From the UHGV virus genome UHGV-0196088: a stretch of DNA of 26,857 bases; one strand, given 5' to 3'. Shown here in pieces: positions 10,590 to 26,857 of this stretch. The position numbers and the translations under genes were made by a program. Origin of the DNA: a virus. The notes under the pieces were generated by a model, which was not told the DNA's origin, ran no database searches, and saw only the letters and a program-made list of their open reading frames with translations. Numbering within the stretch: position 1 is the first letter of the stretch; every line of letters begins with the position of its first letter.

Positions 10590-11186
10590 TTAGGCTCCAG
10601 ATGTGGTGGCGGCTGGTTCGTAAACCTGTGCATACCAATTAGTGATCGTCTCAGGCTTGACCCCGGTGCTGCCCTCTAGCACTTCGGCCTTCCACGGATG
10701 ACGCCCCTTCGCATCTGGCTTGTTACGCCGCAAAATCGTGCCCTCAATGCTCGGGGTCGAGAACGTAATCGAGTCGGCTTTGGTGGCCAGCGTTTCGGTT
10801 GGGAGGGCAAACTTGACCCGGTAAAGCCAGAAATACTGATACTTACCGTTGGAGCGTGCGGCGCGGAACCCGATCGCCACTGGAGCCCCGCCGTCCTCGG
10901 AGGCTGAGATGAGCACCCCGTTTGCATCCACGGTCGCCCCAGTCAAGGCGGCGGCTGCTTCACCACCCAGATCATCAATGCCGAGGGTGAGGGTGCCGGA
11001 TTTGAATTCCTTGACGATCTCGGAAGGGCCGTCATCGGCATACAGGATCGCTTCAGCAACCTCAACACTCAGTTCTGCGCTGATGGCTTTAGCTAAGGGT
11101 TTGGGTTTGGCGTAGGTTTCCTCACCCGTATCGGGGTTTTCGGTGATGGTGGCGTAGTAGAGCTTGTCTAAACCAATCGTTGCCAT
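10590..11186 (-). CDS. Major tail protein
   Basis: 198 aa; N-terminus MATIGLDKLYYATITE... is typical of siphovirus major tail proteins; lies between the head-tail connector genes and the chaperone. Confidence 0.85.
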   Translation of the reverse strand: MATIGLDKLYYATITENPDTGEETYAKPKPLAKAISAELSVEVAEAILYADDGPSEIVKEFKSGTLTLGIDDLGGEAAAALTGATVDANGVLISASEDGGAPVAIGFRAARSNGKYQYFWLYRVKFALPTETLATKADSITFSTPSIEGTILRRNKPDAKGRHPWKAEVLEGSTGVKPETITNWYAQVYEPAATTSGA

Positions 11187-16139: not shown

Positions 16140-16511
16140 ATGAAAGCGCCCTCAAAACAGTCGTGGGCACTGATGAGTGTCCTGCTAGTGGCATTTTGGT
16201 TGTTGCCGCTCATCTCCATGTGGATCAGCAGGCTGAGCGATCCCAACGCCAAGTGGTTCATCGCGTTGCTCTTCCTCGCGTTTCCACTACTCACCATCGT
16301 TTTGAGCGTTATCGATGGGGCACGCCACGGGTTCGGCTGGTGGTGGCTACTGGTCCCGTTCGCAGGGTTCTTGACCACACTGTTCGTGTACTACAACGAT
16401 TCAGCTCTCATCTACGGCGTCGCCTACTCGATCTTGGGACTGATCGGCACAGGCATCGGCGCGTTCATCCATGCGCGTACTCACAGCACGAGTAGGCCGC
16501 GTTCGTCATAA
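16140..16511 (+). CDS. Four-TM integral membrane protein, opposite-strand accessory gene
   Basis: 123-aa ORF with four clear hydrophobic helices. It occupies the gap between the TerL stop and the portal start and overlaps the TerL 3' end convergently by about 30 nt. A TAGAAT -10-like hexamer lies just upstream, implying a short or absent leader. Confidence 0.6.
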   Translation: MKAPSKQSWALMSVLLVAFWLLPLISMWISRLSDPNAKWFIALLFLAFPLLTIVLSVIDGARHGFGWWWLLVPFAGFLTTLFVYYNDSALIYGVAYSILGLIGTGIGAFIHARTHSTSRPRSS

Positions 16512-18112
16512 ACACTGCCGCTGACGTGCCCGCTGCCGTTTCGGATAGCGCGGTCAAGAGCCATGATGGTGGCGACCACGCCGTCAATCTTCTCCGTGGA
16601 CTTTTGCTTGTCGGGTTTGATGTTTCCTGCTGGGTCGGTGCGAACGTGAATGTTGTCTACCATCCATGACAGGACTGGGTGACCGCCATGGGCGAGCTTA
16701 CCTTCGAGTGCGAGCTTCATCAGCTCCTTCGACGGCGGGCTCATATCCTTAAAGCCCTGCCCGAAGGGAACGACGGTGAAACCGAGGCCTTCGAGGTTTT
16801 GACTCATTTGCACAGCACCCCACCGGTCGAACGCAATCTCACGAATATCAAACCGTTCACCTAGCTGTTCAATGAAGGCTTCAATCGCTCCGTAATGAAC
16901 GACGTTGCCCTCAGTCGTCTCTAGGTAGCCTTTTTGCTGCCACAGGTCGTAGGGCACATGGTCACGGGCTACTCGCAGTTTGAGGTTGTCTTGCGGTATC
17001 CAGAACCATGGCGCAATCACATACCGCTCGTCACCGGTTTCGGGTGGGAAGACGAGCACGAACGCGGTGATATCCGTCGTCGAGGCAAGATCGAGCCCGC
17101 CGTAACACACCCGCCCCTCCAAATCTGACAGGTCGACGGGTGCGTTGTTTTGGTTCCACACGTGCATGGGCATCCACCGCACGCTTTGTTTGACCCATTG
17201 GTTGAGGCGAAGTTGTCGGAACGTGTTCTCCTCAGCCGGATTCTGCCTGGCCGAGGTGCAGGCTTGGCGGACTTTCTCAATCGGAACCGTGATCCCCAAG
17301 CTCGGATTAGCCTTATGCCACACGTCCTCGTCGGTCCAGTCATCCTCTCTGTCAGCACCGTAGATGACCGGGTAGAACGTCGGGTCATGTTTCTTGCCTG
17401 CGAGGATGTCTTCAGCTTTCTCATGCTGCTCATAACAAATCGAATGCGTGTCGGTACCGGCCGTCGTGATGAGGAAGTACAACGGCTGCGTGCGAGCATC
17501 ACCCGAACCCTTGGTCATCACGTCGAACAAGGCACGGCCCGGTTGGGTGTGGAGTTCGTCGAAGACGACACCAGAAATGTTGAACCCGTGCTTCGAATAC
17601 GCCTCAGCGCTCAACACTTGATAGAAGGAGTTGGTGGGCTTGTAAATAATCCGCTTCTGCGAGGCAAGAATCTTGACACGCTTGGACAACGCTGGACTCA
17701 TGCGGATCATGTCCGCCGCGACCTCAAACACAATCGAGGCTTGCTGGCGGTCTGCCGCACACCCATACACTTCAGCGCGTTCTTCACCATCCCCGCAGGT
17801 GAGCAGGAGCGCGACCGCTGCGGCAAGCTCCGACTTGCCCATCTTCTTCGGAATCTCGACATAGGCGGTGGTGAACTGGCGGTAACCGTCCGCTTTGACG
17901 GTGCCGAACAGGTCACGGATGATCTGCTCTTGCCAATCAATGAGCTGGAACGGTTTGCCTGACCAGCGGCCCTTCGTGTGCTTGAGCGCTTGAATGAAGG
18001 CCACCGCATAGTCGGCTTTGCGCTTGTCATAGCGTGAGCCGTCAGCCATGAACCGGGTTGGCGTATAGGTTTCTAGTTGACGCATCGTGTCCCACCTCCT
18101 CTCCAGTGGCAT
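16481..18112 (-). CDS. Terminase large subunit
   Basis: ORF-track coordinates; the probable true start is the ATG near 18085 (MRQLETYTPTRF...), preceded by GGAGAGGAGGTG. Contains a TKGRWSGKPFQLIDWQ motif, an ATPase Walker-A-like KKMGKSELAA, and a C-terminal nuclease domain. Confidence 0.9.
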   Translation of the reverse strand: MPLERRWDTMRQLETYTPTRFMADGSRYDKRKADYAVAFIQALKHTKGRWSGKPFQLIDWQEQIIRDLFGTVKADGYRQFTTAYVEIPKKMGKSELAAAVALLLTCGDGEERAEVYGCAADRQQASIVFEVAADMIRMSPALSKRVKILASQKRIIYKPTNSFYQVLSAEAYSKHGFNISGVVFDELHTQPGRALFDVMTKGSGDARTQPLYFLITTAGTDTHSICYEQHEKAEDILAGKKHDPTFYPVIYGADREDDWTDEDVWHKANPSLGITVPIEKVRQACTSARQNPAEENTFRQLRLNQWVKQSVRWMPMHVWNQNNAPVDLSDLEGRVCYGGLDLASTTDITAFVLVFPPETGDERYVIAPWFWIPQDNLKLRVARDHVPYDLWQQKGYLETTEGNVVHYGAIEAFIEQLGERFDIREIAFDRWGAVQMSQNLEGLGFTVVPFGQGFKDMSPPSKELMKLALEGKLAHGGHPVLSWMVDNIHVRTDPAGNIKPDKQKSTEKIDGVVATIMALDRAIRNGSGHVSGSVYDERGLLVL

Positions 18113-18116
18113 AAGA

Positions 18117-18140
18117 AAAGCCCCAACAAGCGGGGCGAAA
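18117..18140 (-). terminator. Weak intrinsic terminator candidate upstream of TerL
   Basis: On the minus transcript: GCCCC-GCUUGUU-GGGGC followed by UUUUCUUAU, between the small ORF ending at 18195 and the TerL RBS. Confidence 0.3.
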
Positions 18141-18194
18141 AGTTCTCAGCGCACAGCGCCCAAACCATGTAGGTACAGGCGCGTTGCGCAGGGT

Positions 18195-18389
18195 TTAGAT
18201 CAGGGCGTCGAGCGCGGCATATTCAGCGCGACGCTGGTCGAGCTGGTGGGCGATGATGGAGGAGCGGAAGCCGTTCTTCTCCCGTCCCAGCTTGTTTTCT
18301 AGGGCGGTGATCTCGGCCTTGCGACGTTTCATCACCTCGATCGTGTCGCCGCCTTGGATTGCTTGCTTGTCGCGTTCGAAACTGTTCAT
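18195..18389 (-). CDS. Small hypothetical protein (64 aa, charged, predicted helical)
   Basis: The ORF track extends to 18518, but the ATG near 18389 (MNSFERDKQ...) is 8 nt downstream of AAGGAG. Preceded by leader element copy A. Confidence 0.5.
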   Translation of the reverse strand: MNSFERDKQAIQGGDTIEVMKRRKAEITALENKLGREKNGFRSSIIAHQLDQRRAEYAALDALI

Positions 18390-18395
18390 GACCAT

Positions 18396-18490
18396 CTCTC
18401 CTTCTCTTGTTTGGTCATGTACATACAGCCATAGACCCGCGACTATATCCAGTCGTTTTCGGCGTATTTTCAAGGGAAAATAGCGATGGT
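18396..18490 (-). promoter_or_regulatory. Conserved leader element, copy A (candidate promoter/operator plus RBS)
   Basis: Core CTTGTTTGGTCATGTACATACAGCCATA (plus strand) with flanking conservation (TATCCAGTCGT, GAAAATAG); about 95 bp near-identical to copy B. Contains the palindrome ATGTACAT and ends in the RBS of the downstream ORF. Confidence 0.6.
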
Positions 18491-18606
18491 CGCCACTCGC
18501 GCACTGAGGCGTTGTCACGAGCCAAACAAGACGGAAGATGCGCCCAGTATGTAAGTGGCAAGCCCAGATCCGTGCCCTGGTCGGTGTGGGTTGGGGCTAG
18601 CGCGGT

Positions 18607-18879
18607 TTAGAGAGCGTTGATCATGCCGATCGCCCAGGCAGTTGCGTGGCCTTCGTCGGTGAAGGCTTCATCGGATTCGGCAGCGAGCATCACTGGGGCG
18701 TTCTTACCTTGGCCTAGGATCTGGAAGATCGCTACGAAATGCTCGTAGGTGCCGAGGGAGTCGTTCCAGATGCGGTTGGTGGCGATCAGGTGAGTGCCGT
18801 AGCGCATCGCGTGTCCCAGGATCTTGTAGTGCTTGGCAACCGCTGTGGTGGTCTTCAAGGCTGTAAGTTCGTTGTTCAT
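18607..18879 (-). CDS. Small hypothetical protein (90 aa)
   Basis: ATG preceded by AAGGAG at ~7-nt spacing, directly after leader element copy B. No recognisable motif. Confidence 0.55.
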   Translation of the reverse strand: MNNELTALKTTTAVAKHYKILGHAMRYGTHLIATNRIWNDSLGTYEHFVAIFQILGQGKNAPVMLAAESDEAFTDEGHATAWAIGMINAL

Positions 18880-18885
18880 GACCTT

Positions 18886-18985
18886 GCTCCTTCTCTTGTT
18901 TGATCATGTACATACAGCCATACGTCGCCGCGCATATCCAGTCGTCTTCCGCGTATTCACGAGGAAAATAGAGATTCTGGTCTCT
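18886..18985 (-). promoter_or_regulatory. Conserved leader element, copy B
   Basis: Same core as copy A with one mismatch (CTTGTTTGATCATGTACATACAGCCATA) and the same flanking blocks. Confidence 0.6.
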
Positions 18986-18999
18986 CGCTTCTGCTCGGG

Positions 19000-19647
19000 T
19001 TATTCGGCCGGGTGTGGCGCGGTTTTCCACGCCGCATTACCTTCCAAATTCGCAAGTAACACCCGGCGGGCGGTCTTGTATCCCTCGCCAAGCATTCCCA
19101 GGCGTAGGAGCCAGCAGCGCATCGCATACTTATCATTCCCTGGTTCAGGTGGTTTCGGTGAGATGCGGGTGGAGGTCTTGGCTTGCTCGATCATCAGCTG
19201 GATAAGCACGCTAGCCACCTCAATCACCTCCGCCTCAGGAAGCTGATCGAACCAAGCAAACTCAACCGTTCCTTCCACCTCGTCCATCTTCATGGGCGTG
19301 GCCGGAATATCGAGTGCCTTGGCGATGAGTGCTCCCTTGGCGGCGAGCAGGGCTTCGAGCTTCGCTGCTGTGGCCTCGTCCCACCCGGTCGTGGGGAATG
19401 CGAGCGTCAGCCCGTACTCCTCGCCCGTGGGCGCAAAACCAGCCGTAATCGCCGCCTCGGTGAGGGAGTCGGTGTCGATGTCCTCTGGGAGGTGGAGCAC
19501 CCAATCCCGATCTAGCCGGGCTTGCCCGATCAGGTAGTCGAAAGAAGGCGTACCCGCATACACGGGGTTCACGCCGAGATGGGCGGCGAGGGCTTCGGCG
19601 AGTTTCTTGCGCCCTCTCTTGTTCGGGGAGAAAGGAATCCGGGTCAT
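19000..19647 (-). CDS. Hypothetical protein (about 215 aa), translationally coupled to the upstream acidic ORF
   Basis: Likely start MTRIPFSPNKRGRKK... at the ATG near 19647, preceded by GGAGGTG inside the 3' end of the upstream ORF. Basic N-terminus, acidic central region. No recognisable family. Confidence 0.55.
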   Translation of the reverse strand: MTRIPFSPNKRGRKKLAEALAAHLGVNPVYAGTPSFDYLIGQARLDRDWVLHLPEDIDTDSLTEAAITAGFAPTGEEYGLTLAFPTTGWDEATAAKLEALLAAKGALIAKALDIPATPMKMDEVEGTVEFAWFDQLPEAEVIEVASVLIQLMIEQAKTSTRISPKPPEPGNDKYAMRCWLLRLGMLGEGYKTARRVLLANLEGNAAWKTAPHPAE

Positions 19648-19829
19648 GCTGCCACCTCCTGGTCGAACCAAGATGCGATGAAACCGAGATAGTCATCTGG
19701 GTAGTCGTTGATGCAGGTTGCGGCTAGCTCGAAGTCGTGTTCGCAGGCGTACCCGAATGCTTCAGCACGGTTCCACAGGTCGACGCCTGCTTCTAGCATT
19801 TCGGTCAGTTCAATATGTAGTTCGCTCAT
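19644..19829 (-). CDS. Small strongly acidic protein (about 61 aa)
   Basis: MSELHIELTEMLEAGVDLWNRAEAFGYACEHDFELAATCINDYPDDYLGFIASWFDQEVAA: about 14 Asp/Glu against one Arg. GGAGG RBS; the same ATGGTCATGA start context as the ORF at 18389; leader element copy C upstream. Confidence 0.55.
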   Translation of the reverse strand: MSELHIELTEMLEAGVDLWNRAEAFGYACEHDFELAATCINDYPDDYLGFIASWFDQEVAA

Positions 19830-19866
19830 GACCATCCTCCAATTCGTGTTTCCCCCAGTTAGGGAT

Positions 19867-19925
19867 CTTGTTTGGTCATGTACATACAGCCATAGGTGCG
19901 CCCGCTTATCCAGTCGTATTGGCTG
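19867..19925 (-). promoter_or_regulatory. Conserved leader element, copy C
   Basis: Identical 28-bp core (CTTGTTTGGTCATGTACATACAGCCATA) plus the TATCCAGTCGT block; located just 3' of the C5-MTase stop and about 38 nt upstream of the acidic ORF start. Confidence 0.55.
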
Positions 19926-21417
19926 CTTTTTGTAGCCTGTTTAGGACGTATTTCACTACTGGTAATGCCACCCCATTTCCCCACAGTTTGTACTGTGCTG
20001 AATCAGTTGGCGCGGTTTTCAGCCAAGTAGTGATTTGGCTGCGAGTTTTCGGTTTCACGCCCCGTCCTAGGTTCCAGTTCTTCCACACGCCCTCCCAGTA
20101 CCTGATTTCGTCTTCGTCTGGGTCGAGGTTTGTGAGGTTGTCACACCAATAGTCCGGGAAGCCTTGTAGACGAGAACATTCGAGGGGTGTGAGTTTGCGT
20201 GGGCGAAGCATCGTATTAGCGACAATAGGTGGCTGGTGTGAATCACTTGCCAAAAGTGCACCAGCAACATTTGTAGTTGCCCTCGTGAAATGATCAGATT
20301 TCGAAGAAGCATAGATCGGTTCGAGAATGACCATTCCGCCTTGATTGCATGCGGGATTACCGCCAGCTAAATCAAGAGTTTTTGCCACAGTGGTTTCGTA
20401 ACCGCATTCACCACCATATTTACGATTGTCGTGGACGGAATTTATACCGTATACAGGTTGGTCGAGTAGGAGTGGAACATTTCCACCTCCTGTTCCCATT
20501 CGTGAAGTTAAGGTTTGACTTGTTACCTGGTCGCCAATTTCGATGCGCGAATCATTGGGATGGTAATCAAGCATCACCTGCATGCTAGGTTTAAATAAGA
20601 CTTGGTCAGCACCAGTTCCTAATGTGCCTGAAAGGTCATGCTGAATCAACGGCCCTTTACCACCGCCTGGCTTACCGGCACGCATACGAAGAGTTAACGC
20701 CCCGCACCGGTTGCCTGTAGTGCTTGGGCTAATTGCTCGGGCAGGGTTTTGTTTTTCTTCTTTGCTCGCGTCAGGATTCCTTGTGCTGCTTTGGGACTCA
20801 AATAGAATCTCGGGTGCGGATTGTCCTGCAAAATCTGCGACAAGGAAGATACGACGACGACGTTGGGGCACTCCGAAAAATTGAGCATCGAGCACTCGCC
20901 ATGCAAGTGATGCCCCATCTGCCAAGACGTATCCGCTGGTTGCCCAGCTGGTTTCAGGAACAGGAATGCGTGGCGTTTGCTGGCAGGACACCTCGATAAA
21001 CGCTTGCAAGACCGCGGCAAAGTCGGCCCCGTGGTTTGAGGAGAATACGCCCGGCACGTTTTCCCACACAGCATATCTTGGGTAGACACCATGAGTTGCT
21101 TGCCTCATTTCTTCAATAATCCGCACAGCTTGGTAAAACAGTGAGGAGCGAGACCCATCAATCCCGCTCCGCTTACCTGCGATAGATAAATCCTGACAAG
21201 GTGAACCAAACGTGATCACATCCACCGGCTGTAACCGGCCACCATCTAACAAATTAATATCGCCAACATGGCGAACTTCAGGCAGATTTTTCCTCGTTAC
21301 CCGGATAGCGAAGGGGTCTACCTCAGATGCCCACATCGGTTTGATACCAACCATTTTGGCAGCTAAAGGGAAACCGCCCGAACCATCAAACAAGGAACCC
21401 AACGTCAAAGCACTCAC
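19906..21417 (-). CDS. DNA (cytosine-5)-methyltransferase
   Basis: 503 aa with motif I (LFDGSGG), motif IV (GSPCQDLSIAG), motif VI (ENVPG), motif VIII (QRRRRIFLVA), a large variable target-recognition region, and a C-terminal GFPDYW motif. GTG start overlaps the stop of the upstream MTase (GTGA). Confidence 0.95.
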   Translation of the reverse strand: MSALTLGSLFDGSGGFPLAAKMVGIKPMWASEVDPFAIRVTRKNLPEVRHVGDINLLDGGRLQPVDVITFGSPCQDLSIAGKRSGIDGSRSSLFYQAVRIIEEMRQATHGVYPRYAVWENVPGVFSSNHGADFAAVLQAFIEVSCQQTPRIPVPETSWATSGYVLADGASLAWRVLDAQFFGVPQRRRRIFLVADFAGQSAPEILFESQSSTRNPDASKEEKQNPARAISPSTTGNRCGALTLRMRAGKPGGGKGPLIQHDLSGTLGTGADQVLFKPSMQVMLDYHPNDSRIEIGDQVTSQTLTSRMGTGGGNVPLLLDQPVYGINSVHDNRKYGGECGYETTVAKTLDLAGGNPACNQGGMVILEPIYASSKSDHFTRATTNVAGALLASDSHQPPIVANTMLRPRKLTPLECSRLQGFPDYWCDNLTNLDPDEDEIRYWEGVWKNWNLGRGVKPKTRSQITTWLKTAPTDSAQYKLWGNGVALPVVKYVLNRLQKAANTTG

Positions 21418-22715
21418 GATTCACCCCGATCAACATCCCGCACCAAATCCAAATACGCGTATTCCTTGCCCTCACGCAAACAGGTGATACCTGCCGCGTC
21501 CCCGGTGTGTTCGGCATACCGGCGCAAAATCACGGAGGCGTATTTCTCGTCGAGCTCCATCGCATAACAGATGCGGTCGCTGGCCTCGCACGCCATCAAG
21601 GTTGAGCCTGAGCCTGCGAACGTGTCGAGCACGATCGCGTTCGCCTGAGTGGAGTTCCCAATCGGATAAGCCAACAAATCCAGCGGTTTAGAGGTGGGGT
21701 GGTCGGCGTTGCGGCGTGGCTTAGCGAAATTCCAGATCGTGGTCTGCTTACGATCCGCATACCAGCGATGCTTACCCGTCTTCACCCATCCAAAGAGCAC
21801 CGGCTCGTGCTGCCACTGATACGGGGAACGTCCCAATACGAGGGAATCTTTGACCCAGATGCAACATCCGGAGAGGTAGAAGCCAGCGTCTTGGAAGGCT
21901 CTGCGGAAGTTTAAGCCTTCAGTGTCAGCGTGAAAAACGTAGGCGGACGCGCCCTTCTCACACACGCCCGCCATATTCGTAAACGCTGCGAGAAGGAAGT
22001 CGTAGAACTTATCGCCATCCATCTTGTCGTTCTTAATCGACAAACCCGACCCTGATTCGAAGGCGACGTTATATGGCGGATCGGTCAACACAAGATTCGC
22101 ACGCTTACCATCCATCAACAACTCGACGTCCTCGGCGCTGGTGGCGTCGCCACAGACAAGTCGGTGGCGGCCGACTGTCCACACATCCCCACGCTCCACG
22201 AAAGTAGCAGCTTCTAACGCGGCGGTGAGGTCGAAATCATCATCCTCCACATCACCCTCATCCAATGAGCCGATAAGCTGCGCGATCTCAGCATCGTCAA
22301 AACCGGTCAGTTCAGCATCGAAATCCGAAGAGTCAAGGTCAGCGATGAGGAGGGCAAGTTTGTCGTTGTCCCATTCGCCACTGATCTTGTTCATCGCAAC
22401 GTTCAGCGCCTTTTCGCGCATTTCGTCAAGTTCGACGACGACGCAGTCCACGGTTTCTTGTCCCAAGTGTTTGAGAACGGACAATCGCTGATGACCAGAG
22501 ATGACGGTGTTGTCATTCGCCGCGTTAACCACCACTAGCTCGACGTAGCCGAACTCAGTCAGGGAGCGCTTAAGCTTTTCAAACTCAGCATCGCCAGGCT
22601 TGAGTTCCTTACGCGGGTTATATGCGGCAGGTTTCAGTTCAGCTATCGGTAGCTGCTTGATTATCATGGACATAGGTGGAGCCTTTCTTGAATAAGAAGC
22701 TGGCTGATGCCCCAA
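21414..22715 (-). CDS. ParB-like nuclease domain fused to an N6-adenine (DPPY-type, beta-class) DNA methyltransferase
   Basis: N-terminal ParB-like region (IAELKPAAYNPRK...ISGHQRL), then DPPY (LVLTDPPYNV) followed by FAGSGST. The likely true start is MSMIIKQ near 22673, which would reduce the overlap with the HNH gene. Confidence 0.9.
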   Translation of the reverse strand: MGHQPASYSRKAPPMSMIIKQLPIAELKPAAYNPRKELKPGDAEFEKLKRSLTEFGYVELVVVNAANDNTVISGHQRLSVLKHLGQETVDCVVVELDEMREKALNVAMNKISGEWDNDKLALLIADLDSSDFDAELTGFDDAEIAQLIGSLDEGDVEDDDFDLTAALEAATFVERGDVWTVGRHRLVCGDATSAEDVELLMDGKRANLVLTDPPYNVAFESGSGLSIKNDKMDGDKFYDFLLAAFTNMAGVCEKGASAYVFHADTEGLNFRRAFQDAGFYLSGCCIWVKDSLVLGRSPYQWQHEPVLFGWVKTGKHRWYADRKQTTIWNFAKPRRNADHPTSKPLDLLAYPIGNSTQANAIVLDTFAGSGSTLMACEASDRICYAMELDEKYASVILRRYAEHTGDAAGITCLREGKEYAYLDLVRDVDRGES

Positions 22716-23206
22716 TCGCCAATAAGTTCGTAGACACGTTTCGTTTCTGCTTCAACCTTCGGGTGGCACGAGCGGCAAAGAACTGCGAGATTATTGCCCC
22801 AGCGCTCGCCTCCACATTTGGTTGGGATGATGTGGTGCACAATGAGATTGCACCTGCTTCCACACCGTCTGCAGATCCCGCGTTTGCGAAGCTTTTGAGA
22901 GAGCTGCTGCCAGTGATAGTCATAGGGACCATACGTGCGCATCGCCTGAGCGTTTTGCCTCAAGACGTTAGTTAGTCGCTGTCTTTTCGAATCGGAGTAT
23001 TCACGCCATTTGCAAGATGTGTGCGCACCGATTTTCGCTTTTGTTTCGGGCGAATGATAGTTCTCACCAAGAGCCTCCTTGCGTCGTCTGAGGCCTGCCG
23101 AAACTTTCTTTCTAAACTCAGGATCTTTGTTCTTCTCAATGAGGTCTTTGCGGCTCTTTTGCCATTCATTTTGACAAGGCACCGAACAAAAGAATTGAGA
23201 AGGCAC
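22664..23206 (-). CDS. HNH endonuclease
   Basis: C-terminal HNH/zinc motif (CRRCGSRCNLIVHHIIPTKCGGERWGNNLAVLCRSCH) and a basic N-terminal region. The gene is visibly lower in G+C than its neighbours. The start is uncertain (GTG at 23206 or an internal ATG). Confidence 0.8.
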   Translation of the reverse strand: MPSQFFCSVPCQNEWQKSRKDLIEKNKDPEFRKKVSAGLRRRKEALGENYHSPETKAKIGAHTSCKWREYSDSKRQRLTNVLRQNAQAMRTYGPYDYHWQQLSQKLRKRGICRRCGSRCNLIVHHIIPTKCGGERWGNNLAVLCRSCHPKVEAETKRVYELIGDWGISQLLIQERLHLCP

Positions 23207-23261
23207 CCGATTTCAGGCATACCTACGCGTTCCCCGCACACCGCATGTGGCGCATTCGTAT

Positions 23262-24440
23262 TCAACCTTCATGCCTTGTAATCGCTTTCTTTAGCGCGTC
23301 GACGTGAGCGAACGAGTTTTCCCAATGCAGACCTGTATGACCGAAGTGCCCATAGGTTGAATACTGTGTAAAGCTAGGCTTGCGAAGGTTCAAGGCATCG
23401 ATGATTGCTCCAGGGCGCAGCGAGAATACTTCGCGTGCTGCCTCGGTCAGGATCTCGTCGGAGTATTCACCACTGCCGAGGGTGTCAACAGTGAAGGCGA
23501 CTGGGTCAGCCTTCCCAATCGCATAAGAAATGCTTACTTGGCACTCGATGGCCAACCGTGCGTCGACGATCGTTTTCGCGATCAGGCGCGCCATATAGGC
23601 ACCCGAACGATCCACTTTCGAGGCGTCCTTGCCTGAGAACGCACCACCACCATGGAGCGCGAGACCGCCGTAAGTATCAACCATCAACTTGCGACCCGTC
23701 AGACCCGTGTCCGCCTTCGGCCCACCCACCGTAAACAAGCCTGAGGGATTCACCAGAATCTCGGTGTCAGCGCTAATCGGCAGGTACAGCTTACAAGCGG
23801 GTGCGACGATCAGTGTTTTGACCTCAGCTGCAAGCTCATCTAGATCCTTGATCTTCTCGTGTTGGATCGACACCACCACGGTCTCAATCGCCAGCGGTTG
23901 TCCGGCGGCGTCGTAGCGAACCGTCACCTGCGCCTTACCATCGGACTTGATACCGGTGATCGTGCCTTGCTTGCGGGCATTGTCGAGCCGGGCGCAAATC
24001 TCATGAGAGAGCACAAGCGGCAGCGGCAAACGCTCCGGAGTCTCACGAGTGGCATAACCGTAAACAGTGCCTTGATCGCCAGCACCCTGCAAAGCGAATT
24101 CGGTGTCATCCCCAAAGCGTGCCTCTAAGGACTTGGAGACTCCGGCATTGATATCTGGGGATTGGCGGCGTGTCCAGACGAAGACGAGGAACTTCCACGG
24201 CACATAACCCGCCTCCATCAACGCGTAACGCACCGACTCACGAATGCGCGGACGAACCTTCGAAGTGATCTCGCCAGTGACGATGATCCGATGCCCGCTA
24301 GCCATCACTTCTACTGCGACGCGGGCAGCAGGATCCTCGTAGAGGATATCGTCAAGGATCGTGTCAGCGATCAGGTCGCAGAGCTTATCGGGATGGCCGA
24401 CACACACGGCCTCAGCAGTCTTCGTAACAGACATACACAC
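23262..24440 (-). CDS. metK: S-adenosylmethionine synthetase (methionine adenosyltransferase)
   Basis: MetK signature motifs by eye: GHPDKLCD near the N-terminus, GAGDQG, DTYGG, GGGAFSGKDASKVDRSGAY, and a YAIG C-terminal region. The probable start is the ATG two codons in (MSVTKTAEAV...). Confidence 0.95.
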   Translation of the reverse strand: MCMSVTKTAEAVCVGHPDKLCDLIADTILDDILYEDPAARVAVEVMASGHRIIVTGEITSKVRPRIRESVRYALMEAGYVPWKFLVFVWTRRQSPDINAGVSKSLEARFGDDTEFALQGAGDQGTVYGYATRETPERLPLPLVLSHEICARLDNARKQGTITGIKSDGKAQVTVRYDAAGQPLAIETVVVSIQHEKIKDLDELAAEVKTLIVAPACKLYLPISADTEILVNPSGLFTVGGPKADTGLTGRKLMVDTYGGLALHGGGAFSGKDASKVDRSGAYMARLIAKTIVDARLAIECQVSISYAIGKADPVAFTVDTLGSGEYSDEILTEAAREVFSLRPGAIIDALNLRKPSFTQYSTYGHFGHTGLHWENSFAHVDALKKAITRHEG

Positions 24441-24464
24441 TCACTTTCCAAGGAATCGGGACAT

Positions 24465-24495
24465 AGAAAAGTGCCCACCCATCCGGGGCAGGCAC
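24465..24495 (-). terminator. Intrinsic terminator candidate between TerS and metK
   Basis: On the minus transcript: GUGCCUGCCC-CGGAU-GGGUGGGCAC (~10-bp stem with G-U pairs) followed by UUUUCUAU. Coordinates are approximate. Confidence 0.3.
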
Positions 24496-24513
24496 ACGAA
24501 AATCAAAGGGGTG

Positions 24514-25086
24514 TTAGGAGCGTGCTTTGAGCAGTTGCTCCATCACGTCATCACCCGGAGCCGTGCCCGAGTAGTCGGTGGTGCAGGTGGCGCGGACGAT
24601 CTCGTAAATCTCGTACCAGTACACGTTCGCTTGCTTCCCGAACGACTGGGACATGGCGACGAAGGGGGACGCGATTGCAGCCCCTGTGGTTGGGTGCTTG
24701 CCAAGTAGGCCGAACTTGGAGATCGCCTGCTCACACTGCACATAGCGCGCGAACGCCTGCGCATAGGCTTCGATCAGACGTGGGGCGACGAACTGGGAAC
24801 AGCCACGTTGATCGAGCCATTGCCACGTTTCTCGGTAGACCAGGTCAGCACCGAGTGGTTTGCCATCCCGCTGAACCTCAGACAAATACTCGCTAGGTTC
24901 TGGCATGGTCTCCCCGGCGAGCACTGCGCCCTCACCCACATCGGAGCCGCTGAAATCAAACACGTCCTCAAGCGGATCATGCAACCTAGTCGCAGGGCTG
25001 CCTTTGGCAACCTTCTCACTCAACGCATCCGGCTTCGCACCCGCACGCACCCGACGTCCACCCCTGTTAGTACCATCCTTAGCCAT
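24514..25086 (-). CDS. Terminase small subunit (P27-family-like)
   Basis: 190 aa; basic N-terminus (MAKDGTNRGGRRVRAGAKP), central ...LIEAYAQAFARYVQCEQAISKFGLLGKHPTTGAAIASPFVAM... resembling P27-type small terminases. GGAGG RBS. First late gene after an AT-rich promoter region. Confidence 0.6.
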   Translation of the reverse strand: MAKDGTNRGGRRVRAGAKPDALSEKVAKGSPATRLHDPLEDVFDFSGSDVGEGAVLAGETMPEPSEYLSEVQRDGKPLGADLVYRETWQWLDQRGCSQFVAPRLIEAYAQAFARYVQCEQAISKFGLLGKHPTTGAAIASPFVAMSQSFGKQANVYWYEIYEIVRATCTTDYSGTAPGDDVMEQLLKARS

Positions 25087-25101
25087 GGGAATCCTCCCCT
25101 C

Positions 25102-25130
25102 TTGCTGGACGTGCTGATACTCTATATAAT
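25102..25130 (+). promoter_or_regulatory. Near-consensus sigma-70-type promoter (TTGCTG - 17 nt - TATAAT) facing the plus-strand membrane gene
   Basis: Read directly in the AT-rich spacer between the TerS start and the plus-strand ORF; a TTGACA hexamer lies a few nt downstream. The same region probably holds the divergent promoter for TerS. Confidence 0.45.
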
Positions 25131-25185
25131 TTCACCAGTTGACATAATTAGCATCGGTAATGGAGAGTCTTCGTGGACTACTGAG

Positions 25186-25638
25186 ATGGAAGCGACCAAT
25201 AACTTATCCAATCGTGGGATTCGGTATAGATGGCTGCTAGGTATTACCTTTGTATTTTTCGCTTGCCATGTTTCCTACACCGTTTTAGCTCTTACGCTTC
25301 CGAGTATTCAGCTACTCGGGTCACTTTTGATCGCTGTATCAATACCCGTTAGCGCTCTTTTTGGTTGTGTCCTGCCACTCAGAGGGTTTAACTCTCGATT
25401 CTTGATTAAATCTGGGTTCTCTATTTTCGTTGGCATTGTAGCGGCTTACGCCACGGCACAACTAGCTGAGAGTGGCAATTTATCAGTGCGAGCAATGCTC
25501 TGCGGGCACCTCGCACTCAATCTGACAATCTACACTTTAATGTGTGGTTTAACGACAATCTATATTCGCCGTCAGCAAACTGGGTGTACTCGACGCCCAG
25601 AAACCACTGAGGATCAACAACTAGACGACAATCAATAG
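25186..25638 (+). CDS. Integral membrane protein (about 150 aa, ~4 TM helices) in a low-G+C island
   Basis: In-frame ATG within track ORF 24808..25638. Hydrophobic helices (WLLGITFVFFA, LLGSLLIAVSIPVSALFGCVL, GFSIFVGIVAAYATA, LALNLTIYTLMCGL). The region is visibly AT-richer than the phage genes. Confidence 0.55.
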   Translation: MEATNNLSNRGIRYRWLLGITFVFFACHVSYTVLALTLPSIQLLGSLLIAVSIPVSALFGCVLPLRGFNSRFLIKSGFSIFVGIVAAYATAQLAESGNLSVRAMLCGHLALNLTIYTLMCGLTTIYIRRQQTGCTRRPETTEDQQLDDNQ

Positions 25639-25673
25639 TCTACAGGTGCCCAACAACCCTACCCTCTTACTGA

Positions 25674-26183
25674 TCATTTCTCCGACTCAGGTAGGCTTTT
25701 CGTTCCTTTGTTCAACGCGTCAGTGAGGTTTTCAATAAACGATTCACTATGATCAATGATTACCGTTGCCCCATCTTTGATCACAACATGCACGGACGTT
25801 GTATTCGGGTAGTTGGCGTTTACCTCTGTCAATTTGCCATCATATGTAAACCAACGAAGTGTTATATCGCTACGGGAAATTTTACGTGCAGACTCTGAAC
25901 AGACCTGATGTGGTACATCAGCTGGTGATGCTGAGTGAGTGTCAACGCATACCTGGCCTTTAGTTTGATAAACGTCAACGGTATTGTTGCCAGAGTCGGC
26001 TCTAGCCACCAAATACTTCGCATCGATTTTGGGAGAGGTAACCACGACTCCAGGGATTAGATTGAAATAGAGCGCGATTAAAATTCCGAGGATAGAGAGC
26101 GCGCAGGCAGCAATAATGAGTGCTATTTTTCTTATTCTGAGAACAAGAATTCTAGTTTTCACATTGTTGCTGCCTGCGTTCAT
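25674..26183 (-). CDS. N-terminally membrane-anchored protein with ~120-aa extracytoplasmic domain
   Basis: 169 aa: basic stretch (KTRILVLRIRK), then one TM helix (IALIIAACALSILGILIALYF), then a soluble domain with two Cys. Low G+C; immediately downstream of the next ORF. Confidence 0.55.
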   Translation of the reverse strand: MNAGSNNVKTRILVLRIRKIALIIAACALSILGILIALYFNLIPGVVVTSPKIDAKYLVARADSGNNTVDVYQTKGQVCVDTHSASPADVPHQVCSESARKISRSDITLRWFTYDGKLTEVNANYPNTTSVHVVIKDGATVIIDHSESFIENLTDALNKGTKSLPESEK

Positions 26184-26195
26184 TGCTTTGCGCTC

Positions 26196-26857
26196 CTATC
26201 CAGCTGCTCCGATTGCCACCAGCCCTCCGACTAGCCCAGCTTCGGGTGCGACGACAACTACAACGGCAGCGAGTGCCACGAGCGCGACAACACCGACTGC
26301 TACAGCAACTGCCTCGCCAGAAACCTCGGGTAGTCGCAATTCTACACCTAGCGTTGGATGCAGGGTGACCTCATAGGTGACAGTCACGGACATGGTGGAC
26401 TTTACTGCGGTGTTTCCGCTTGCAAGGTTATCTGAATCCACTCGAATCCATGCCTGCAATGAAGTGGGATCCACAACTGTGAGTCCATATGAAATATTTC
26501 CTGACTTAACAGACCCTGCTATACGTTTGATTTTTGAGGCGAAGTCACCATTGGAACCGAGATCTTTCACATCGAAGGTTGCGCTTGCGGAGTCAATTGA
26601 ACTGAGAGTCGAGGCTGACAGTTCTCCCGCATTGTTTACCGTGATGTTAGTTGAAAACAATTCATTAGAGGATGTCGTCGCTTGAGTCGCGATATGTGCT
26701 GAGACCTTCATGTCGAAAGTTGGCGTATGCACATTGCCAAGCTCAAGTGTCTGGCCGTATTCCCAGCCAACAGAAGAAAAGCTTGGGTAGTAACCCAAGG
26801 GCTCAAGTACACGTCGCACGAAAGTTTCTCGTGCGATCTCGAGCAGATTACGTCGGT
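26196..26857 (-). CDS. Ser/Thr-rich surface-type protein with hydrophobic C-terminal segment; 5' end probably beyond the window
   Basis: The ORF stays open to the window edge. Beta-rich Ser/Thr/Asn-rich sequence ending in a long hydrophobic Ala/Val/Gly stretch preceded by LPEVSG. Confidence 0.45.
   Translation of the reverse strand, partial: RRNLLEIARETFVRRVLEPLGYYPSFSSVGWEYGQTLELGNVHTPTFDMKVSAHIATQATTSSNELFSTNITVNNAGELSASTLSSIDSASATFDVKDLGSNGDFASKIKRIAGSVKSGNISYGLTVVDPTSLQAWIRVDSDNLASGNTAVKSTMSVTVTYEVTLHPTLGVELRLPEVSGEAVAVAVGVVALVALAAVVVVVAPEAGLVGGLVAIGAAG

Follow-up and report, generated by a model that had tools for sequence, protein, structure and literature searches.

In T4-type phages, promoter-early stem-loop (PeSL) cassettes combine strong canonical sigma-70 early promoters with an effective terminator stem-loop (PMC2839356, PMC4122927). 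These cassettes appear to be the closest described analogue of a repeated element in the viral genome UHGV-0196088, which carries three copies (A, B, and C), each in front of a small open reading frame (ORF), in a stretch of 26,857 nucleotides referred to here as the window. In both cases, short repeated regulatory cassettes precede small nonessential ORFs in a hyperplastic region between core genes. Recombination between PeSL copies inserts, deletes, and replaces genes, and here a hybrid copy (locus L034) and mosaic flanks would fit such an exchange. Unlike PeSL cassettes, the element has no canonical -10 hexamer, and only about 12% of its copies have a terminator-like site in the 130 nt before them. 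The phage that carries it is temperate, siphovirus-like, and associated with Gram-positive hosts; PeSL cassettes have no complementarity to the start codon, and the two share no sequence similarity.

Two other systems resemble the element in part. Davis, Simons, and Kleckner are said to have described fold-back inhibition in IS10/Tn10 in 1985. In the insertion sequence IS200, the Shine-Dalgarno (SD) sequence of tnpA is sequestered (PMC4513863). As in these insertion sequences, the translation initiation region (TIR) has its complement in a segment that precedes the element's predicted transcription start, and incoming transcripts would be translationally silent. The insertion sequences control transposase genes in this way, whereas the element precedes accessory cassettes in the late-operon region of a phage, and its start position is a prediction. 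Morons, which were reportedly described by Juhala et al. in 2000 in phages HK97 and HK022, are likewise extra genes between conserved late genes (here terS to terL) with autonomous expression signals, of which the cassettes have a putative promoter and a terminator after the last cassette. They differ in having individual, unrelated sigma-70 promoters and often a deviant composition, whereas the cassettes of the window share one invariant element and have the same GC content as the neighboring sequence (0.56-0.575).

Judged from its sequence, the window phage is a Heliusvirales-type temperate phage of the actinomycete branch. Its TerL is 75-79% identical to the TerL of Firmicutes phages classified as Ca. 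Heliusvirales, and the nearest genomes are Mobiluncus curtisii prophages; megablast against isolated phages returned no close relative. The paper that describes the Ca. Heliusvirales order reports an actinomycete-infecting subfamily and does not mention promoters or intergenic repeats, and a literature search for the element sequence found no mention of it. Heliusvirales-type prophages are reported to be very widespread in human-associated bacteria (PMC11283538). By its conservation, the element is a strongly conserved regulatory cassette, undescribed as far as these searches reach, that builds on known kinds (phage regulatory cassettes and fold-back translational masking) rather than forming a new category.

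Anatomy of the element and complementarity to the start codon

The first-pass annotation of the window had described a 28-bp core occurring three times, with one mismatch in the middle copy, a flanking block beside each core, and similarity between two of the copies over about 95 bp. All of this was reproduced. The 28-mer CTTGTTTGGTCATGTACATACAGCCATA (plus strand) is exact in copies A and C and has one mismatch in copy B. The window contains no further match at up to three mismatches, and 100 dinucleotide shuffles gave no match at all (three copies observed against none expected). In every copy, a 12-nt interval separates the core from the flanking block ACGACTGGATA (sense). The similarity between copies A and B spans about 105 nt, with 82% identity over 82 nt and 77% over an additional 26-nt stretch; copy C is 67% identical. 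The credible genes of the window (lysis, tail, head, portal, terL, the three small cassettes, methyltransferases, HNH, metK, and terS) are all on the minus strand, and the element is therefore read on that strand, where each copy lies 5' of a small gene as the annotation had stated: the 64/66-aa ORF (copy A), the Nmad4 gene (copy B), and the 61/63-aa p63 gene (copy C). The plus-strand ORFs across the copies (MFGHVHTAI...) were rejected as genes, being by-products of the repeat that overlap minus-strand genes.

Read in the sense direction, the arrangement is phased A/T tracts, (A)CTGGATA, 12 variable GC-rich nucleotides, TATGGCUGUAUGUACAUGACCAAAC, 10-40 variable nucleotides, the SD sequence, and the start codon. 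The element is thus bipartite (CTGGATA, 12 variable nucleotides, and TATGGCTGTATGTACATGACCAAAC), is about 47-50 bp long, and lies 38-66 nt from the start codon. The core palindrome noted earlier, ATGTACAT, is 8 bp long with no further extension, and apart from it the element contains no inverted repeat of the kind expected for an integron attC-type site. In copy C, CTGGATAA includes the TAA stop codon (19908-19906) of the Dcm gene that precedes it. A near match, ACGATTGGATA at 25205-25215, lies within a plus-strand membrane-protein ORF and was dismissed as chance.

The first-pass annotation overlooked the fixed-spacing bipartite anatomy, the wide distribution of the element, and a relationship between the core and the gene that follows it. 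In three recurring registers, the start-codon region of the downstream gene shows complementarity to the invariant core. In the first, found in all three window copies, GGUCAUG at the start codon pairs with CAUGACC of the core; copy B has CAUGAUC and keeps the pairing through one G-U pair. In the second register, ACAGCCAUG pairs with UAUGGCUGU, and in the third, GGUUUGGUGAUGAUAGGACAGCUAUA pairs with the entire core. The pairing of AUGGCUGU with ACAGCCAU is an alternative to CAUGACC:GGUCAUG. The annotation had also pointed out a start context common to two of the ORFs; this context, ATGGTCATGA, is present at copies A and C (AAGGTCATGA at copy B) and is the sequence to which CATGACC of the core is complementary.

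The association extends well beyond the window. In 1.66 Mb, ACAGCCATG occurs 45 times 25-75 nt downstream of a core and three times elsewhere (both strands), and GTTTGGTGATG occurs 21 times in that position and once elsewhere, raw counts that overstate the number of independent events because the compared sequences are related. The core and the start region also covary. Cores with CATGACC are found with GGTCATG starts, and cores without it (CATACCG, CATGACA, or CATGAAA) are found with ACAGCCATG starts. The downstream proteins fall into five homologous clusters, and both pairing states are present, in matched form, within each of the four largest. A permutation test that compared each core with its own and with other TIRs gave z = 6.9 for core positions 12-27. 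Pairing of the 12-nt spacer with the TIR or the ORF was considered and rejected, as there was no covariation. When 103 unique RNAs that include the core were folded against dinucleotide shuffles, the mean z was -1.80 (92% below 0) and the probability of an unpaired start codon was 0.28; after truncation at core position 18, these RNAs gave z = 0.04 and a probability of 0.66. The complementarity and its covariation are established, and a function of the pairing in masking the start codon would be consistent with these folds.

Other hairpins accompany the element. A palindrome, (T)AGAGATG-N3-ATCTCT(A), lies about 45-70 nt 5' of CTGGATA at internal copies in the window (18970-18985) and in at least four related loci. 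It contains ATGTACAT in some cases and is followed by a T run or, often, by an A run; the window hairpin 5' of copy B is a member of this conserved AGAGAUG...AUCUCU family. It may be a protein-binding site, because the sequence itself is kept and not the structure alone. Leaders of the p63 type, in the window (19837-19860, minus strand) and in six related loci, contain a CCCC...GGGG hairpin whose stem changes are compensatory between phages (CCCCAAG/CUUGGGG, CCCCCAC/..GGGGG, and CGCC/GGCG) and which is restricted to the p63 cassette. Between the last cassette and the terminator (18137-18194, minus strand), CCUGUACCUACAUGGUUUGGG is similar to the core (CUGUAnnUACAUG), with the complement of CCAAAC after it; this stretch may be a remnant of an element copy or a pairing partner. 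Rfam 15 gave no relevant match at E <= 10 on the region and none at the gathering score on the window or on three related loci.

Distribution, the Firmicutes form, and cassette exchange

The exact 19-nt core was found at 55 IMG/VR loci and 23 reference-genome loci, in all cases in the sense orientation and upstream of genes, and a G-to-A variant of the core was found at 11 further loci. The 23 genome loci comprise ten Actinomycetaceae genera, two Corynebacterium, Propionibacteriaceae/Tessaracoccus, Helcobacillus, Atopobium, and one record labeled Tissierella. About 90 related prophage loci carry the element in one to four copies each, between the methyltransferase genes and terL, and the 12-nt spacing from CTGGATA to the core is constant in 59-110 unique related copies. 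Loci L001-L078 share the layout terS - metK - ParB-methyltransferase - (Dcm) - [element] p63 - p215 - [element] x - [element] y - terL - portal, and the TerS and TerL of the compared loci are 74-100% identical to those of the window at the protein level. The check proposed by the first-pass annotation, a search of related prophages, therefore places the core before varied small genes and rules out a local duplication. A Bifidobacterium host, suggested by GC content and the ribosome-binding site, was rejected, since the core occurs in Actinomycetaceae, Corynebacterium, and others and Mobiluncus curtisii genomes encode the exact p63 protein; one of these genomes also shares the cassette order of the window. 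The element can serve as a sequence tag that locates the variable accessory-gene region in hundreds of prophages.

A copy of the element upstream of terS was also considered and rejected, as a different conserved region occupies that position. In eight related loci, a strongly conserved noncoding region (...GGTCAGCGGGCGGGGCCAACCGTACGCAAAAAGACCGATTCAAACAGGGTATTAACCCGC...) lies about 40-160 nt 5' of terS, between an HNH gene and terS, and may be a cos site or a late promoter. The window is without this region and has other DNA inserted there.

Firmicutes phages possess a homologous form, CTTGCTAT-N8-TTTAGAGTGATATATGTACATACCAAAA. Scanning with the pattern CTTGCTAT-N8-TTTAGAG-N-GA identified at least 120 viral loci; NatCom_35866 has two copies. 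In Streptococcus phage Javan630, CTTGCTATATAAGTGTTTTAGAGTGATATATGTACATACCAAAACAAAGGAGG lies upstream of the homologue of the 215-aa gene, whose product is labeled a virulence-related protein in that phage. A second Javan630 copy is directly 5' of the serine-integrase gene, which makes the element an expression signal used generally in the lineage and not tied to the terS-terL region. As a regulatory part it is compact and portable, and it seems to function in Actinomycetota as well as in Firmicutes. In some actinobacterial phages the first element has an intermediate form, CTTGCTATT-N7-AATAGAGCGTGTATGTACATGACC, which makes a gap-free three-way alignment possible; its universal part is CTnGnTA ... 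TRTATRTACAT(G)ACCRAAA. The Firmicutes form can be read as TTGCTA (-35-like), 17-19 nt, GAATAT, GATATA, or TG-A-TATATR, about 7 nt, and ACC(A/G)AAA, and its A/T tracts occupy the same three positions as in the actinobacterial form. The pairing partner in Firmicutes is often an anti-SD string (CCTCCCTTT, CTCCTTT, TTTTGCC...), located in the variable nucleotides that separate CTTGCTAT from TTTAGAG (z = 4.2); including these nucleotides lowers SD accessibility from 0.67 to 0.40. In the public annotation of Javan630, a 600-bp stretch has been left empty; it holds an HNH endonuclease ORF (10783-11143) between Javan630_0044 and the terS-like gene.

The number and content of the cassettes vary between otherwise collinear phages, and their flanks are mosaic, which bears out the earlier suggestion of a boundary at which small-gene cassettes are swapped. 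The phage represented by L033 and L034 is 100% identical to the window in p63, in the 66-aa gene (p66), and in a TerL fragment, and it lacks the Nmad4 cassette. Its single element in L034 is a B/A hybrid that joins the window's copy B leader to the p66 gene of copy A, the product expected from crossing-over between two copies. Repeated copies would thus act as crossover points for adding, deleting, and exchanging cassettes between the methyltransferase genes and terL, and the element offers a concrete mechanism for the gain and loss of small genes beside DNA-methylation genes.

Proposed promoter architecture and translational masking, and alternatives

The first-pass annotation had proposed a repeated promoter or operator. 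A conserved expression signal it is, given its occurrence at viral and genome loci always in the sense orientation; a canonical sigma-70/sigmaA promoter it is not. The promoter reading draws on the architecture of the element and on its Firmicutes homologue. Four of the six positions of TGGATA agree with the -35 consensus, and the tracts at -30 to -26, -18 to -13, and -7 to -4 relative to CTGGATA have an A/T content of 85-99%, against a GC content of 58% for the loci, an A/T-rich region upstream of a -35 like that of an UP element. Three registers can be proposed. In M1, an upstream TTGAYN would be the -35 and GATAAG the -10, with a start upstream of the core and the proximal A tract in the spacer; the first copies, which sit inside the Dcm coding sequence, have no -35 in this register. 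In M2, TGGATA would be the -35 and CTGTAT or TGTATG the -10, and the RNA would begin (G)ACCAAAC at core position G18 or A19. In M3, AYGACT would be the -35 and TATGGC the -10, with a start in the core 3' of TATGGC, and the invariant CTGGATA is left unexplained. M2 is preferred because the A/T tracts would then be in place for an UP-like element, the layout would correspond to the Firmicutes version (TTGCTA-17-GAATAT), and the conserved ACCRAAA would be explained as an initial transcribed sequence. The actinobacterial form has no proper -10 under any register, and a helper factor is therefore likely. In Javan630, Javan630_0044 has DUF1492 and Sigma70_r4 domains and Javan630_0052 has a Sigma70_r4_2 domain, and the actinobacterial phages encode a syntenic 152-159-aa protein that shares its PHROG transcription-activator families with Javan630_0044.

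Some copies lie directly after intrinsic terminators, with a strong one in the Firmicutes cases. In the actinobacterial set, 14 of 113 copies have a terminator-like hairpin with a T run at most 130 nt upstream; in the Firmicutes set, 12 of 133 do. A terminator before every copy, as in a strict moron or PeSL layout, was therefore rejected, and the upstream hairpin is often followed by an A run.

The reading tentatively favored here, to which we give slightly less than an even chance, is that the element is a noncanonical promoter with a leader and that a sequence embedded in the promoter masks the start codon in read-through transcripts. The three phased A/T tracts would form an UP-like or curved region, CTGGATA would supply the -35-like hexamer, and melting would occur 17-18 bp farther along, in the 5' half of the core (CTGTATGTACAT), which is rich in A and T. 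Transcription is predicted to start between CAUG and ACCAAAC, at core position 18-19, probably with a phage factor, for which the small sigma-70-region-4-like regulators of the lineage are candidates. RNA that contains the whole core, read in from the terS-metK-methyltransferase operon or from the preceding cassette, would fold back and mask the start codon because the core is complementary to the start-codon region of the following gene; RNA initiated at the element would have a leader that is A-rich, free of structure, and open. Only transcripts from a cassette's own promoter would then be translated, which is the logic of IS10 fold-back. Under M2, the TIR-masking sequence would lie upstream of the element's own start, and in the Firmicutes form the anti-SD sequence would do so under all three registers. 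Read-through RNA is probably common, since the Dcm stop codon is inside copy C and so few copies have a terminator-like site upstream. If fold-back occurs as proposed, an insertion-sequence mechanism would be extended to phage gene cassettes, for which discrimination by transcript origin through fold-back appears not to have been described, and the element would offer two levels of control, a specialized promoter and start-codon masking.

The CII-dependent promoters of lambda (pRE, pI, and paQ) are weak and noncanonical, and on int the origin of the transcript is discriminated by RNase III at sib. Like the element when read as a promoter, they form a noncanonical family with one motif, serve integrase or establishment functions, and are part of a system in which expression is set by transcript origin. 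The TTGC-N6-TTGC motif is absent from the element, and the discrimination proposed for it is fold-back on the TIR in place of RNase III at sib.

Several observations weigh against the favored reading. On the promoter side, a consensus scan of 17900-20200 found no sigma-70/sigmaA promoter. TANNNT is absent from copies B and C; only copy A has one (TATAGT, by eye), and neither the other two copies nor the related ones keep it. In the actinobacterial core, all candidate -10 hexamers are missing either A-11 or T-7. Recognition by sigmaA does not by itself account for the conserved blocks, TTTAGAG in Firmicutes and TATGG in the actinobacterial form, and the candidate sigma-r4-like gene lies outside the window. 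Three registers are arguable, and only the one with TGGATA as -35 puts both anti-TIR segments upstream of the start. On the RNA side, the pairing helices are short (7-9 bp) and single-sequence z scores of the window copies, which fold alike, are only -0.7 to -1.1. Some cassettes (MARTTT..., MNTEML..., and some copies in L046 and L050) have no start-codon pairing, and the relatedness of the compared sequences, mentioned above, counts here as well.

A broader version of the favored reading, which is possible and rather more doubtful, is a cross-phylum Heliusvirales module. It would consist of a sigma-r4-aided promoter with anti-start or anti-SD sequence in its untranscribed part, would discriminate transcripts of different origin by fold-back, and would use the same element as the cassette crossover point. 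As part of that joint reading, each accessory gene, together with the integrase gene in Firmicutes, would be translated only from RNA initiated at the element and would be silent in read-through late or replication transcripts.

Among the alternatives, a pure RNA operator without a promoter survives best, though we consider it unlikely. The whole element would belong to a 5' UTR or to intercistronic RNA. The core would pair with the start codon by default, and an RNA-binding factor encoded by phage or host, or a small RNA, would free it by recognizing the invariant single-stranded blocks. In phage Mu, Com binds a specific site beside a helix and activates translation of mom; a DNA-modification-type gene and a start codon sequestered in a leader helix, by prediction in the case of the element, are common to both systems, whereas for the element no protein or site corresponding to Com and its helix-adjacent site was identified. 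The complementarity and covariation of the core and TIR fit an RNA operator as well as they fit the favored reading, as do the absence of a canonical promoter and the association of downstream genes with nucleotide modification. Most copies have no upstream terminator and would be transcribed from upstream anyway, as the Dcm stop inside copy C illustrates, and the whole 25-nt core is more invariant than 7-9 bp of pairing would need. However, covarying helices are absent between the conserved blocks, and the 12-nt spacer likewise lacks covariation. The upstream A/T tracts, phased in two phyla, and the -35-like hexamer at a fixed distance are features of DNA, and the Firmicutes element reads as a fair sigmaA promoter, at times directly after a strong terminator. 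Nor was there an Rfam match, and no candidate RNA-binding protein or complementary small RNA was found on either strand of the window.

Binding of the core and CTGGATA by a prophage repressor or another DNA-binding regulator, which would shut the genes off or block elongation in the lysogen, is improbable. Asymmetric, orientation-fixed, highly invariant intergenic repeats would suit such an operator, as would the core palindrome ATGTACAT, the second conserved palindrome (AGAGATG-N3-ATCTCT) before internal copies, and the position of a Firmicutes copy before the integrase gene. Mycobacteriophage stoperators are 13-bp sites with about 20-30 copies genome-wide, and start-associated sequences abut start codons. 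These are also asymmetric, orientation-fixed repeats in short intergenic spaces of actinobacteriophages; the element differs in being about 47 bp long, in having one to four copies in one region, and in its distance of 38-66 nt to the start. Against an operator, the palindrome spans just 8 bp, exact copies are restricted to one region of each phage, and the start-codon complementarity and its covariation are left unexplained. An operator is also compatible with a promoter rather than an alternative to it.

That the repeats are a recombination boundary alone, persisting through cassette exchange in the manner of homing or linker sequences, with no role in expression, is very improbable. The variable cassettes of collinear phages and the L034 hybrid are what such a boundary would produce, but the conserved-variable-conserved pattern, the fixed spacing, the exact identity across host orders, and the Firmicutes homologue indicate selection on the sequence, and the strict sense orientation, the distance to the start codon, and the TIR complementarity are features of expression. 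The least probable proposal, that translation of an upstream mini-ORF (AUG GCU GUA UGU ACA UGA, encoding MAVCT) opens the CAUGACC:GGUCAUG helix by coupling or attenuation, was rejected because the mini-ORF, present in all three window copies with a stop codon overlapping the anti-TIR segment, is not conserved among core variants: its in-frame stop is lost in common variants (GTATATACATACCG..., CATGACA..., and similar), it stands in any of the three frames relative to the main ORF (d = 50-55), the G-to-A variant is nonsynonymous, and no SD sequence precedes it.

Features and neighboring genes of the window

Features of the cassette region and its flanks (window coordinates)
Feature	Coordinates	Strand	Remarks
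Conserved upstream block	19906..25086	-	terS to C5 methyltransferase; same operon direction
terS	25086-24514	-	upstream block
metK	24440-23262	-	upstream block
HNH endonuclease	23206-22664	-	between metK and ParB-methyltransferase gene
ParB-N6/N4 methyltransferase	22715-21414	-	upstream block
C5 methyltransferase (Dcm)	21417-19906	-	upstream block
Element copy C	19867..19917	-	ACGACTGGATA 19917-19907; 12-nt spacer 19906-19895; 28-nt core 19894-19867 (0 mismatches)
Leader C	19827..19866	-	CCCUAACUGGGG hairpin; SD GGAGG; start region GGUCAUG 19833-19827, complementary to core CAUGACC 19880-19874
Cassette 1 (behind copy C)	19000..19829	-	p63 and 215-aa protein
p63	19829 or 19835 to 19644	-	small acidic protein, 61/63 aa; first ORF behind copy C
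215-aa protein	19647-19000	-	phrog_2443, "amidoligase"-associated
Hairpin AGAGACCAGAAUCUCU, then AUUUUCC	18963..18988	-	3' of 215-aa gene, 5' of copy B
Element copy B	18895..18945	-	ACGACTGGATA 18945-18935; spacer 18934-18923; core 18922-18895 (1 mismatch)
Cassette 2 (behind copy B)	18607..18883	-	start region GGUCAUG 18883-18877; Nmad4 gene
Nmad4	18879-18607	-	90 aa; PF18756, E = 2.8e-22
Hairpin GCGAGUGGCGACCAUCGC, then UAUUUUCCC	18475..18500	-	5' of copy A
Element copy A	18406..18456	-	ACGACTGGATA 18456-18446; spacer 18445-18434; core 18433-18406 (0 mismatches)
Cassette 3 (behind copy A)	18195..18393	-	start region GGUCAUG 18393-18387; 64/66-aa ORF
64/66-aa ORF	18389 (alternative ATG 18395) to 18195	-	no family match
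Intrinsic-terminator-like hairpin GCCCCGCUUGUUGGGGC and U run	18110..18136	-	between last cassette and terL
terL	16481..18112	-	543 aa; probable start 18085; conserved downstream boundary of cassette region

Nmad4 and the "amidoligase-associated" family are the only recognizable families among the cassette proteins, and NCBIfam and PDB sequence searches gave nothing on the function of these proteins.

The HNH gene within the upstream block is found only in the window; tblastn found no copy at that position in any related locus. Relatives have an HNH gene 5' of terS, beside the conserved cos-like region. The window gene looks displaced or separately acquired and is possibly mobile. In the window, a stretch of low GC content (0.47) lies 5' of terS at 25100-25660 and contains the sole convincing plus-strand gene, an ORF at 25186-25638 that encodes a predicted membrane protein of about 150 aa. 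Beside it are two minus-strand ORFs (25674-26183 and 26196-26819) without a functional family match. The low-GC stretch looks like an insertion because relatives carry a helicase, a sigma-r4-like regulator, and an HNH gene at this position.

The terL gene, which forms the downstream boundary of the cassettes, may itself be interrupted in some phages. A LAGLIDADG domain is absent from the window terL. In several relatives, including Mobiluncus curtisii ATCC 35241, TerL is 876 aa long and carries this domain (11463-14093 in L214/L215), and split TerL matches occur in five further loci, which suggests an intein or an intron-encoded endonuclease inside terL.

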